A DNA stretch of 64,000 nt from contig SCQK01000007.1 of assembly GCA_004321885.1 (NCBI GenBank), positions 1-64,000 on the forward strand, read 5' to 3'. A program made the translations under genes and the position numbers. The DNA comes from Patescibacteria group bacterium. GTDB lineage: Bacteria; Patescibacteriota; Patescibacteriia; Magasanikbacterales; GWA2-37-8. Under the pieces are notes generated by a model. It was given only the letters and a program-made list of their open reading frames with translations, was not told the DNA's origin and made no database searches. Of the stretch, positions 40,409 to 44,475 are shown one piece after another (the stretch's first letter is position 1; every line of letters starts with the position of its first letter).

Positions 40409-40518
40409 GGAATGACAGCGTGGACAATTTGCCAATCGACAGAGTATCACAGTGTTTCCACTGAGTATCTCCAGAAAGGAGGTGATCCATCCACAGCTTC
40501 CGCTACGGATGCCTTGTT

Positions 40519-41287
40519 CATGTTTCTCCCTATGTCGCCATAAGGCACGGACTATATCATCACCCGTTTTGAGAGAATTTTTTGCTTAGCCGGATGCCAT
40601 GAGCCGATAACTCGGATAAAATCTTGGAGCGAATTCGCTCTCACGAATATGCGCCAATAATCCGGGTCAACTCGCTTGCTGGGATTGTGAACTTTCCCGC
40701 AAACGATGCTCATTTTTTTCAACATCTGTTTAAGCTTGCATATCTTGGCTTTATCCTTTTGCACCAATTGTATATACAGCCGCGCTGTAATGTGGTGCGG
40801 AACGCCGCCTTCGGCGTCAAAGAATCCTCGAATATACGCTTTTTGTTCTTCGCGACTTTTTAGCCGCAATGGATCAAAACGGAAATCCAGAAATGACGCT
40901 AATGTTTCAAGAACATGGACATCTCTGTCTTTTCCTTCGCGATACATCCAAGACGAATAGCCAATCTTTTTTAGAAGTCGCTTTAGCGTTTTTAGCCAAC
41001 CGGTTCCCTTTTGTGAAAAACGGAATCTGCGGTTACTGCTAAATGTGCCGTCGTGCAATGCTCCTAAAAGATATGCTTTTATTTCTCCCCTTAACGGGGT
41101 TCGGCGTGTAGTCTCTGAGGGGTCAATCCCGACTAAGTCGGGACGACTTCCCTGCTGATTGACTGCACCGAAAACTTTTTCACTCATACTGCTATAGTGT
41201 AGCACAAGTAGTTTCGGATACACAGTGTTTCCAGCAAACAGCCGAATTTGTTTTTAGCGATTACTCGCTAAGAGTCGCAATTTGTTT
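40519..41287 (-). mobile_element. 16S rRNA intron 1 (about 769 nt, near E. coli position 1506) carrying a LAGLIDADG homing endonuclease ORF
   Basis: The exon sequence ccttgtt / acgactt is split by this insertion, which contains the ORF at 40552..41223. Confidence 0.7.
40552..41223 (-). CDS. LAGLIDADG homing endonuclease (intron-encoded)
   Basis: 223 aa with the motif IRGFFDAEGGV; a second motif lies near LLGALHDGTF. Confidence 0.75.
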   Translation of the reverse strand: MYPKLLVLHYSSMSEKVFGAVNQQGSRPDLVGIDPSETTRRTPLRGEIKAYLLGALHDGTFSSNRRFRFSQKGTGWLKTLKRLLKKIGYSSWMYREGKDRDVHVLETLASFLDFRFDPLRLKSREEQKAYIRGFFDAEGGVPHHITARLYIQLVQKDKAKICKLKQMLKKMSIVCGKVHNPSKRVDPDYWRIFVRANSLQDFIRVIGSWHPAKQKILSKRVMI

Positions 41288-41699
41288 ACGACTTTACCCT
41301 AGTCACTGACCCTGCCTTAATTCCCCGAAGGAAACTTTGGGCATTGCCAGCTCCCGTGGTATGACGGGCGGTGAGTACAAGACCCGAGAACGTATTCAAC
41401 GCGCCGTGGCTGATGCGCGTTTACTAGCGATTCCGACTTCATGAAGGCGAGTTGCAGCCTTCAATCTGAACTGGGGCCGGTTTTGATGGGATTGGCTCCG
41501 CCTCGCGGCTTAGCGACCCATTGTACCGGCCATTGTAGCATGTGTGTAGCCCTGGACGTAAGAGCCATGCTGATTTGACGTCGTCCACCCCTTCCTCCCG
41601 GCCCGCTGTTCGCTTGCTTTCGCAAACGCCCAAAGGGCCGGGCGGTCTCGCGTGAATATTTAACACGCGACGTGGGTTGCGCTCGTTTCCCAACTTAAT

Positions 41700-41992
41700 G
41701 GTACACCTCCGGATTATTATCTTCACGCAGACTATTCCTTCACCCTTTGCCGACTAAGTCGGCATGAGGGGCTGGCGTATTAGCGGAACTATAAATTCAA
41801 TCACATCCATGAATTCCGCTCTTGGCAAAATGCCTTAGTCGTTACAGGGTCAACCCACGATTTTATTTAAAATCGGGGCGACTTCCCTCGGAGTTCCCAA
41901 ATTCATATGGTATATTTTACCATTTTTACATGAATTTGATAATGAGGTTCTCCGATATGAGCCAGATTTCTCATATCTCTTTTCAGAGATAG
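41700..41992 (-). other. ORF-less insertion of about 290 nt in the 16S rRNA (near E. coli position 1090): a degenerate intron or expansion segment
   Basis: The conserved sequence cccaacttaa...catctcacgacacgagctgac is interrupted. The insert has no ORF. It contains ccgactaagtcgg and the ggcgacttccctcgg motif shared with the other insertions. Confidence 0.55.
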
Positions 41993-42299
41993 GCCGCGAG
42001 ATGTTCACGGCACGAGCTGACGGCAACCATGCAGCACCTATCTAGCACCCTCGAAGGCGGCGGCCGTTTCCGGCAGCTTGCAGCTAGTAGTTGAGCCCAG
42101 GTAAGGTTCCTCGTTTGTCGTCGAATTAAACCACATGCTCCACCGCTTGTGCGGGTCCCCGTCTATTCCTTTGAGTTTTAACCTTGCGGCCGTACTCCCC
42201 AGGCGGCGCACTTAACGCGTTAGCTTTTTTGAACGGCACTGACAGGGTCGATACTGCCAATACCTAGTGCGCATAGTTTAGGGCGTGGACTACCAGGGT

Positions 42300-43330
42300 C
42301 ATTTCACTTTACATTTCTGTAAAGATTGGACTATATCATTTTCTGTAAGCTTTCCACTTGCTTTTCTTGAGATTGACATACTCTCGTATTTTTTCCAAAG
42401 AAAAGCCCGTGTTTTTCGCTATTTCAGAAATCCAGCGTTCTTGAAGTTGAACATCGTTATACATCAGAATCACTTTGGGCAAAACTTCTTCAACCTTCGT
42501 ATAAGGCAGAATAATGCGAAGAAGTTTTTTTAGTTCCTCGGTGGAACGCAACCAAATTCTGAAGTATTTTTCTTTTTTTCCATTAACCTTTGTAATGGAT
42601 GCCACTCTGACCTTGATTTTCCAGACTGTTTGAAGATATTTGGCTAAAACTTGCACGGCTTTTTCATCAAAGCCATCGGTGCAGATGACGCCTTTTCTAC
42701 CATTTGAAATGATAGAACCGTCGTCAAACCACCAGATTGCCAGTGATAATGGGCTCATGAAATTTAACCACTTTCTTCGTATTTCCAATCTGTTGTTTTT
42801 ACAGGTCAGATTGTGCATTTCCGTCAATGCTTCCAGGGCCTTGCTTTGATAACGAAGTTTTGCTTGTTTGCTAAACCCGTTATCTTGTTCTTGAAGCCAG
42901 ACCGACTTATCCGAGGATATCTCGGACAGCTGCCTGACCTTCCAGTCAAAGTAGGCTTTCTGAATGACGGAGTGCCTGAAAGAAAATCTGGCGTTTTTGT
43001 ATGGCCGATGGATTTTTAACGACCCGTCGCCCAACAAAGAGCCGAGGATTATTTCTTTCACGCCATTTGACAAAGGCACATTAGAATAATTATTCATAAT
43101 TTATGAATGATAATTAAATGCGCCAACTATCTTTCATCAACTTCATAGTCTCTACGGGGTCGAACCGCATTTGGCGGACGACTTCCCTCGGGATTGTCCA
43201 AACTGATGGTAGTATTTTTTTGTTTGGAGTTTCCCCGATATAGCTGAATGCTCATCTCAACATTGCTGTTGAGAGGGACACCGTTTATGCCGACTTGTTC
43301 CGCCTTAGGCGAACAAGCGACAAAGGATCT
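42300..43330 (-). mobile_element. 16S rRNA intron 3 (about 1.03 kb, near E. coli position 790) carrying a LAGLIDADG homing endonuclease ORF
   Basis: The exon sequence ggactaccagggt / atctaatcctgtt is split. The insertion contains the ORF at 42336..43097 and about 230 nt of flanking intron core. Confidence 0.7.
42336..43097 (-). CDS. LAGLIDADG homing endonuclease (intron-encoded, two-motif type)
   Basis: 253 aa. Motif 1 is ILGSLLGDGSL and motif 2 is IWWFDDGS. Confidence 0.8.
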   Translation of the reverse strand: MNNYSNVPLSNGVKEIILGSLLGDGSLKIHRPYKNARFSFRHSVIQKAYFDWKVRQLSEISSDKSVWLQEQDNGFSKQAKLRYQSKALEALTEMHNLTCKNNRLEIRRKWLNFMSPLSLAIWWFDDGSIISNGRKGVICTDGFDEKAVQVLAKYLQTVWKIKVRVASITKVNGKKEKYFRIWLRSTEELKKLLRIILPYTKVEEVLPKVILMYNDVQLQERWISEIAKNTGFSLEKIREYVNLKKSKWKAYRK

Positions 43331-44475
43331 ATCTAATCCTGTTCGCTCCCCACGCTTTCGTCCATGAGTGTCAGAAACGTACCAGCAAGCTGCCTTCGCC
43401 TTTGGTGTTCTTGCGGATATCAACGCTTATTACGACTACACCCGCAATTCCGCTTGCCTCTTCCGTCCTCAAGTTTGGTAGTTTCAAAGGCAATCTTAGA
43501 GTTAAGCTCTAAGTTTTGACCCCTGACCCGCCAAACCACCTGCGGACGCTTTACGCCCAATAAATCCGGATAACGCTTGAGGTCTCTGTATTACCGCTAC
43601 TGCTGGCACAGAGTTAGTAACCTCTTATTCACGAAGTACCGTCACGAATTCTTCCCTCGTAAAAGCGGTTTACGACCCGAAGGCCTTCATCCCGCACGCG
43701 GCGTCGCTCCATCAGGCTTTCGCCCATTGTGGAATATTCTCGACTGCAGCCTCCCGTAGGAGTCTGGGCAGTGTCTCAGTCCCAGTGAGGCAGGTCACGC
43801 TCTCACGCCTGCTACTGATCATCGCCTTGGTGAGCCATTACCTCACCAACTAGCTAATCAGACATAGGCCCCTCTCCAAGCAGCTTGCGCTTTTAAATGC
43901 GAATGACTTTTGTCCCCGCATTGCCATCGGGTTTTAATTCGCCTTTCGGCGAGCTATCCCCGTCTCGGAGGTAGGTTACCAATGTGTTACTCACCCGTTT
44001 GCCGCTCGTAATTCCCTTGCGGGAACACGTCGCTCGACTTGCATGCCTTAAACACGCCGCCAGCGTTCATCCTGAGCTAGGATCAAACTCTTAAAAAGAG
44101 TTGATCTCGTTCTACCCGACTTCGCCAAAGCTACATCGGGTAAGATGAACGAGTTAATATATACGGATTTATTTATTTATACTCGGTCGCCTCTTCGGCA
44201 GCCGAGTTTCGAATAGACTTTATTTTGTGGTTTTTGTCACGTTTGTGTTGTCAATGAACTTCTTACCCTGTTCGCAGAGTAAGAAAAAAGAGTAATCAAA
44301 TCTTGATTCCTCTTTTCTCTTACCAGTATCCACCGAAGGCGGACTTAGAAGACAAGCTGAATTGTCGGAGGTGCTTTTGCTGAAGGATTTATATTAAATC
44401 TTAGCTTTCGCATTTTATCATATACCAAAATTTTGTCAAGGGGGTGGGTGTGGGCAGAATGTGGATAAAAAAACA

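Follow-up and report, generated by a model that had tools for sequence, protein, structure and literature searches.

Is the interrupted 16S ribosomal RNA (rRNA) gene on contig SCQK01000007.1 of a Patescibacteria group bacterium (GenBank assembly GCA_004321885.1) a working gene whose insertions are spliced out as introns, a gene whose transcript ends up in fragments, or a decayed or misassembled copy? The question concerns positions 1 to 64,000 of this contig, which is the whole stretch of DNA analyzed here (64 kb; hereafter the window). An earlier note, made from the letters alone, had described a 16S gene split by three insertions, two of them encoding LAGLIDADG proteins and one lacking an open reading frame (ORF). 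We consider it very probable that the locus is the functional, single, and unlinked 16S gene of a Patescibacteria bacterium (Candidate Phyla Radiation, CPR; Parcubacteria group) with three group I introns. The evidence consists of the gene itself, its exact intron boundaries, the group I cores, the endonuclease domains, intron homologs at the same sites in other contigs, and covariation in these intron families.

The exon and intron limits were set by blastn and mafft against Escherichia coli rrsH (L001). Together with the Rfam match, this alignment divides the gene into four exons and supports the three insertions described earlier. The interrupted gene is 3623 nt long and comes to 1526 nt once spliced, in agreement with the exon total of about 1.53 kb estimated in the earlier note. 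The gene and its parts are:

40476-44098, minus strand: interrupted bacterial 16S rRNA gene (Rfam SSU_rRNA_bacteria, 1210 bits, and alignment to E. coli rrsH)
43331-44098, minus strand: exon 1, E. coli about 1-793, 768 nt, ending ...GGAUUAGAU (blastn/mafft against rrsH)
42300-43330, minus strand: intron 1, group I, 1031 nt, after U793, starting AGAUCC and ending ...AAAUG (omega-G) (Intron_gpI match, homologs, and compensatory pairs)
42007-42299, minus strand: exon 2, E. coli 794-1078, 293 nt (blastn/mafft against rrsH)
41710-42006, minus strand: intron 2, ORF-less group I, 297 nt, after U1078, ending ...AAUCCG (Intron_gpI, 31.8 bits, E 1.3e-5)
41288-41709, minus strand: exon 3, E. coli 1079-1498, 422 nt (blastn/mafft against rrsH)
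40519-41287, minus strand: intron 3, group I, 769 nt, after U1498, ending ...AACAUG (Intron_gpI, 69 bits; gathering score, 50)
40476-40518, minus strand: exon 4, E. coli 1499-1541, 43 nt, including the anti-Shine-Dalgarno CCUCC (blastn, 86% over 43 nt)

The insertion sizes given in the earlier note stand, but the insertion points it had placed near E. coli positions 790, 1090, and 1506 were off by 3, 12, and 8 nt, respectively. Few alternative cuts exist at each junction (two at intron 1, three at intron 2, and three at intron 3), and every junction permits one placement in which the upstream exon ends in U and the intron ends in G. When the insertions are removed (slash, rejoined junction), the exons read GGAUUAGAU/ACCCUGGUAGUCC, GUGCCGU/GAGGUGUACC, and AAGUCGU/AACAAGG, and these rejoined segments correspond to universal 16S rRNA sequences (790 loop, helix 34/35, and helix 44/45). 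The true 3′ end of the gene is GGATCACCTCCTT at 40476. The Rfam small-subunit (SSU) model closes this end at 41238, within intron 3, through a forced alignment, so annotation by covariance model cuts off the 3′ end of the gene. As the earlier note had stated, the gene has no linked 23S or 5S partner: none reaches the Rfam gathering score across the whole 64 kb, where the other matches include two tRNAs and one above-threshold group I intron (40528-41297). Separation of the 16S gene from the 23S gene is reported to be common in Patescibacteria (bioRxiv 10.1101/705046).

The Infernal/Rfam check of the insertions that the earlier note had proposed points to a single intron class. With relaxed thresholds, Intron_gpI (RF00028; gathering score, 50 bits) matches all three insertions, with 69 bits for intron 3, 31.8 bits for intron 2, and 28 + 28 bits for intron 1. 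The alignments show the usual core, namely, P4, then P4′/P6, then a GAGACUA and GAUAUAGUC pair that forms P7. Moreover, all three are preceded by U and terminate in G. We conclude that each insertion is a group I intron, and this holds for the one without an ORF as well. Group II families have no Rfam match in the window, which rules out a group II identity.

A motif that the earlier note had reported from all three insertions, GRCGACTTCCCT, is indeed present exactly three times, once per intron, against a chance expectation of 0. Its coordinates needed a shift of 1-2 nt and are:

43177-43188, minus strand: shared core motif AGGGAAGUCGUC in intron 1, P4 3′ strand / P6 5′ strand (motif count and covariance-model alignment)
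41877-41888, minus strand: shared core motif AGGGAAGUCGCC in intron 2 (motif count and covariance-model alignment)
41142-41153, minus strand: shared core motif AGGGAAGUCGUC in intron 3 (motif count and covariance-model alignment)

On the RNA strand the motif is AGGGAAGUCG, in which the P4 3′ strand leads into P6. In the covariance-model alignment it corresponds to CCGCAGCCAAau of the Rfam consensus, the generic group I P4′/P6 ("Q") core element, and therefore marks group I cores rather than a special kinship among these introns. We reject the motif as evidence of such kinship, which the earlier note had suggested as related intron cores: the consensus is generic, and P7.1/P7.2-like helices are found in intron 2 but absent in introns 1 and 3.

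Intron 2 contains mechanical frames only (at most 58 aa), and its P1/P10 guide is a textbook arrangement:

41993-42004, minus strand: internal guide of intron 2, ACAUCUCGCGGC (covariance-model alignment, covariation, and direct reading)

In P1, UCGCGGC is paired with GCCGU/GA, which places U1078 opposite G. In P10 (7 bp), ACAUCUC, located directly 5′ of the P1 guide, pairs with GAGGUGU of the 3′ exon. Intron 2 alone folds at -109 kcal/mol versus -78 when shuffled (minimum free energy z = -6.4), and the fold recovers P1, P2, P4-P6, two extra hairpins (P7.1/7.2), and P8. Hairpins P7.1/P7.2 between P7 and P3′ are the arrangement of subgroup IA. Since the extra hairpins of intron 2 are placed between P7 and the P3 3′ strand, our reading is that this intron is IA-like.

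The P1 of intron 2 was also used as a pattern for a metagenome scan (CAGCTCGTGYCGTGA, then 3-12 nt, then TCGCGRC, with Y and R left free). At least 120 JGI metagenome contigs carry an intron 2-type P1 at the U1078 site (L122-L241; e.g., L218:2790-3125, L168:844-1207, and L200:438-834), hereafter the S1078 family. Among the 120 contigs listed, the Y-R pair of P1 is U-A in 83, C-G in 35, U.G in one, and C.A in one, such that 118 are Watson-Crick. A G stands directly before the 3′ exon in 79 of 82 S1078 members. Most S1078 introns among the matches listed are about 830 nt long, and nine are short. When nine ORF-less members were aligned, 19 of the 46 predicted pairs showed compensatory changes, and these are found in P1, P2, P3, P4, P6, and P8. 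The nearest 16S relative among those compared, L152 (86-91% identity), is without introns 1 and 3. Its S1078 intron carries a 228-aa LAGLIDADG_2 ORF (1746-2432) where intron 2 has merely the P6 tip. Because intron 2 is ORF-less while the P6 loop of other S1078 members houses a LAGLIDADG_2 gene, intron 2 presumably lost its endonuclease gene or never gained one. The patchy distribution fits mobile introns that were gained by homing and then lost their endonuclease genes, and intron 2 represents the ORF-less state.

Three further observations concern this family. A 23-aa ORF of intron 2 (MRNLAHIGE...; 41903-41974, minus strand) uses the same AUG, located in J2/3-P3-P4, as the 228-aa ORF of L152; it stops within P5, and the endonuclease frame in the S1078 family begins in the ribozyme core. 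The exon variant GTGTCGTGA occurs in 84 of the 120 S1078 contigs listed. In some S1078 contigs, the downstream exon is identical to that of ordinary non-CPR bacteria (GAGATGTTGGGTTAAGTCCCGCAACGAGCGCAACCC), which suggests that the family may reach well beyond the CPR.

Introns 1 and 3 both contain LAGLIDADG genes, as the earlier note had recognized. For intron 1, the features are:

42336-43097, minus strand: ORF of intron 1, a 253-aa double-motif LAGLIDADG endonuclease (Pfam LAGLIDADG_2, E 4.8e-36)
43276-43282, minus strand: putative internal guide of intron 1, GGUGUCC (invariant in six family members; pairing read from sequence)

Intron_gpI matches the two halves of intron 1 that flank the ORF (43027-43296 and 42307-42459; 28 bits each, E ~1e-4). 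Homologs were found at the same site (793/794) in the metagenome contigs L196 and L169, in the GTDB contigs L021 and L018, and in the ORF-less GTDB contig L076, whose 294-nt intron scores 63 bits, above gathering. Across the six introns of this S793 family, 16 of 37 predicted pairs are compensatory. The putative guide could pair through its GUC with exon GAU793, with a U.G wobble, and through its GGU with ACC of the 3′ exon (P10). The exon-intron boundary can also form a hairpin between exon positions 784-789 and intron positions +2 to +7 (43324-43340), with the splice site in a 5-nt loop. Its closing pair, 784/+7, covaries in the six members (A-U in three, G-C in two, and G.U in one), a pattern that chance or common ancestry may explain in a sample of six sequences. 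It is improbable, in our view, that the hairpin is a splicing switch that delays splicing or couples it to 30S assembly, or that it represents non-canonical splice-site recognition without a conventional P1. Splicing after U789, the hairpin's U789.G wobble, is ruled out: the conserved 790 loop would lose 4 nt because the 3′ junction supplies no AGAU.

The ORF of intron 1 scores 124.7 bits to LAGLIDADG_2 (cut-off 25) and covers 161 of the 168 profile positions. Its two motifs, LLGDGSL and WWFDDGSI, each keep the acidic residue as read from the translation. The ORF is flanked by P3′ and P7′, and the conserved AUGAUAUAGUCC element shares nucleotides with its stop codon. Distant sequence matches in PDB are to the I-SceI family (6x1j and I-SceI; E 1e-5 to 1e-3). 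Like I-SceI-type monomeric LAGLIDADG endonucleases, this protein has the LAGLIDADG_2 domain with two motifs in one chain; it differs from them in its very distant sequence and in its predicted target, a bacterial 16S site.

The ORF of intron 3 belongs to another LAGLIDADG family:

40552-41223, minus strand: ORF of intron 3, LAGLIDADG endonuclease with motifs LLGALHDGTF and IRGFFDAEGGV (Pfam LAGLIDADG_3, E 1.2e-12)

Its LAGLIDADG_3 score is 48.4 bits (cut-off 22.5), both motifs retain the acidic residue in the translation (LGALHDGT and GFFDAEGG), and no sequence match was found in PDB. The body of the ORF lies in the P8 loop. In P1 of this intron, AGUCGU/AA is paired with UUGCGACU, with U1498 opposite G. 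Homologs at the same site are present in L067 (GTDB) and in L162 and L203 (metagenomes), and the L067 intron is above the gathering score (Intron_gpI, 50.2 bits). Among the four S1498 introns, compensatory changes were seen by eye in P2 and P3.

The exons also bear on function and lineage, in particular around the 515 site. The 530-loop pseudoknot is the pairing between positions 505-507 and 524-526, and both sides are altered here:

43588-43609, minus strand: divergent 515F target GUGCCAGCAGUAGCGGUAAUAC, with C525U and C526A (alignment to E. coli and GTDB scan)
43617-43619, minus strand: positions 505-507, UAC rather than GGC, partner of 524-526 (G505U and G506A by alignment)

The 515F target, read at 43609-43588, is GTGCCAGCAGTAGCGGTAATAC, which bears out the divergent 515 site of the earlier note. 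Positions 524-526 (43598-43600) are GUA versus GCC in E. coli and pair with the UAC at 505-507. These two double changes keep the pseudoknot, and the gene therefore looks functional rather than decayed. The exact 22-mer variant was found in at least 120 GTDB contigs. The variant contigs listed mostly have Moranbacteria/Moraniibacteriota, Paceibacterota, Parcubacteria, or Patescibacteria titles, with a minority of other labels, and about 80 of these 120 also have UAC at 505-507. Judged by these signatures, the host 16S belongs with the CPR/Patescibacteria, Parcubacteria group, in line with the CPR assignment made earlier.

Taken as three group I introns, the insertions suggest the following mechanism. 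The 16S gene would be transcribed as a precursor of about 3.6 kb, in which each intron would fold into its group I core. P1 would arise from pairing of the internal guide with the 3′-terminal nucleotides of the preceding exon, and a U.G wobble would mark the splice site. Free guanosine, held in P7, would then attack after U793, U1078, or U1498; next, the intron's own terminal G would replace this guanosine, and the exons would be joined. The predicted product is a 1526-nt 16S rRNA with normal 790 loop, helix 34/35, and helix 44/45. The double-motif LAGLIDADG enzymes of introns 1 and 3 would cut intron-less conserved targets, predicted as GGATTAGAT/ACCCTGGTAGTCC and AAGTCGT/AACAAGGCATCC in the DNA, and repair would insert the intron (homing). 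These enzymes may help splicing too.

Other explanations have to be weighed against this one. Many bacterial 23S intervening sequences are excised without ligation, which results in fragmented rRNA, and RNase III-type processing could likewise remove the three insertions so that the 16S rRNA ends up in pieces. This may apply to some of the rRNA insertions in CPR bacteria (Tsurumaki et al., 2024; PMC11270868). However, all three insertions here have a group I core, follow a U, end in G, and contain a guide (putative in intron 1) that is complementary to both exons. Moreover, they do not lie in variable helices but interrupt universally conserved, functionally central segments, namely, the 790 loop, helix 34, and the junction of helices 44 and 45. 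We thus regard excision without ligation as very unlikely. A pseudogene in decay or a chimera of the assembly, with the real 16S located elsewhere, is scarcely credible. Our view is that of one 64-kb window, and a second, intron-less 16S copy may exist elsewhere in the genome, which also counts against a single 16S gene. Furthermore, the best 16S identity of the window to the GTDB variant contigs compared is about 82%. Nevertheless, the gene has a full-length Rfam match, its pseudoknot change has a compensating partner, and the exons are all nearest to the same relatives (L152/L231/L141), which led us to reject a chimera or a pseudogene. The intron boundaries are nucleotide-exact, and members of these intron families occupy the same sites in independent contigs. 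The observation of the earlier note is confirmed and its interpretation supported, with small corrections.

The remaining points against three active, self-splicing introns concern the introns themselves. Introns 1 and 2 individually score under the Intron_gpI gathering threshold. The P1 of intron 1 has just 3 exon base pairs (GAU with GUC), and the exon-intron hairpin competes with this P1 and excludes it. The P10 of intron 3 is weak (about 2 bp). The start of the intron 3 ORF is ambiguous by codon walk (GTG at 41223, GTG at 41205, or ATG at 41187), and all three candidates lie upstream of P4′-P6-P7-P3′, such that the frame reads through the ribozyme core; its relatives in L162 and L203 start with an ATG inside P8, 7-8 codons ahead of the first motif. 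LAGLIDADG_3 proteins have a variable N-terminal non-domain region (PMC11270868), which fits these upstream starts. Finally, splicing, endonuclease activity, and homing are all predicted from sequence. Some of these points are consistent with introns that are group I by descent but no longer self-splicing, such that they need LAGLIDADG maturases or host factors, and with endonucleases that may be inactive remnants. The short P1 and competing hairpin of intron 1, the weak P10 of intron 3, and the missing ORF of intron 2 are all compatible with such a loss, and cycles of endonuclease gain, decay, and loss have been discussed for CPR rRNA (PMC11270868). On the other hand, neither ORF is disrupted and each keeps its catalytic acidic residues, the core helices are preserved through compensatory changes, and one CPR rRNA LAGLIDADG enzyme, I-ShaI, has been demonstrated to be active (PMC11270868). 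We consider a loss of self-splicing possible but unlikely, and three group I introns in a functional 16S gene as the best explanation of the locus.

This arrangement is in good agreement with the literature on the ultra-small CPR bacteria. Of their 16S genes, 48% have insertions; a single rRNA gene (16S or 23S) may contain as many as 16, and Rfam identifies 35% of those in 16S as group I introns (PMC11270868). They carry LAGLIDADG_1, _2, and _3 ORFs, ORF-less and ORF-bearing forms share sites, five 16S sites are group I hot spots, and one insertion site is named as "at position 1498" (PMC11270868). As in the CPR cases (Brown et al., 2015; Tsurumaki et al., 2024), the window has several group I introns in a single-copy 16S, LAGLIDADG_2 and LAGLIDADG_3 ORFs, locations in conserved rRNA segments, and site 1498; no difference in kind from these genes was found. 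Reviews that cite Brown et al. (2015) report that transcripts lack the insertions and that the 515F/806R primers fail to capture most CPR 16S genes (PMC9698310). The intron-bearing arrangement is thus real and already well documented for the CPR, and current understanding is unchanged. What the window adds are exact, rule-consistent boundaries at three sites and covariation support for the large S1078 family. It also provides a further example of homing-endonuclease-driven intron spread in reduced CPR genomes. Because the gene is 3.6 kb long and its 515F site is mismatched, standard surveys based on 515F/806R or on full-length amplicons would overlook or misrepresent it.

A second comparison is provided by giant sulfur bacteria. 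Their 16S introns were reportedly demonstrated to be self-splicing by experiment in a 2012 PNAS study by Salman and colleagues, with a gammaproteobacterium as host. As in the window, multiple group I introns interrupt a bacterial 16S; in contrast, the host is gammaproteobacterial and not CPR, and the self-splicing demonstrated there is deduced here from sequence. Their insertion sites, which reportedly include about 795, 1078, and 1495, would match the three sites here. The subgroups to which these self-splicing 16S introns belong are IA3, ID, and IC1 (PMC4853749).

For the surroundings of the 16S gene, one candidate regulatory feature was identified upstream:

44412-44439, minus strand: promoter-like site about 315 nt 5′ of the 16S start, TTGACA-16-TAAAAT with an upstream TG (11 of 12 sigma-70-like consensus positions; consensus match only)

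The region upstream of the 16S gene also contains a weak NUDIX-like ORF and trmD. Downstream are an MBL-fold gene (39264-39932) and then a 491-aa ORF (37783-39258) with a C-terminal PEP-utilizers mobile domain (residues 417-486). The earlier note had described this flank as an adjoining PEP-utilizer fragment. The domain is present, but the ORF is complete and the MBL-fold gene lies in between. The N-terminal 400 residues of the 491-aa ORF have no Pfam match at E < 0.01. Genes for tRNA-Ile(GAU) and tRNA-Val(GAC) are located at 30388-30462 and 31420-31494, about 9-10 kb downstream of the 16S gene and on the same strand. A gene for tRNA-Ile(GAU) usually lies in the spacer between 16S and 23S, and in the window it stands apart from any rRNA gene. 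The rRNA operon of L076, the contig with the ORF-less intron 1 homolog, is still linked.

Several features of the exons differ among the sequences compared. In the window, a 36-nt segment stands for 5 model positions near E. coli ~1160 (window ~41600-41640), and the V3 hairpin (~455-477) is shortened. Relatives have larger insertions of 80-165 nt in the region 1133-1173. The window 16S has no insertion at position 1399/1400, where many relatives have one of 460-950 nt (L007, L042, L097, L015, L021, L062, L118, and L169). Group II introns at position 1400 are known from CPR 16S genes (PMC11270868), and L162:1805-1888 has a group-II-D1D4 match that is probably located at about this position. Annotation pitfalls were found in the relatives and in the window: the SSU match that ends inside intron 3 of the window has a counterpart in cmscan results that put the archaeal SSU model above the bacterial one for the intron-bearing CPR 16S genes of L152:632-3096 and L169:9172-9561.

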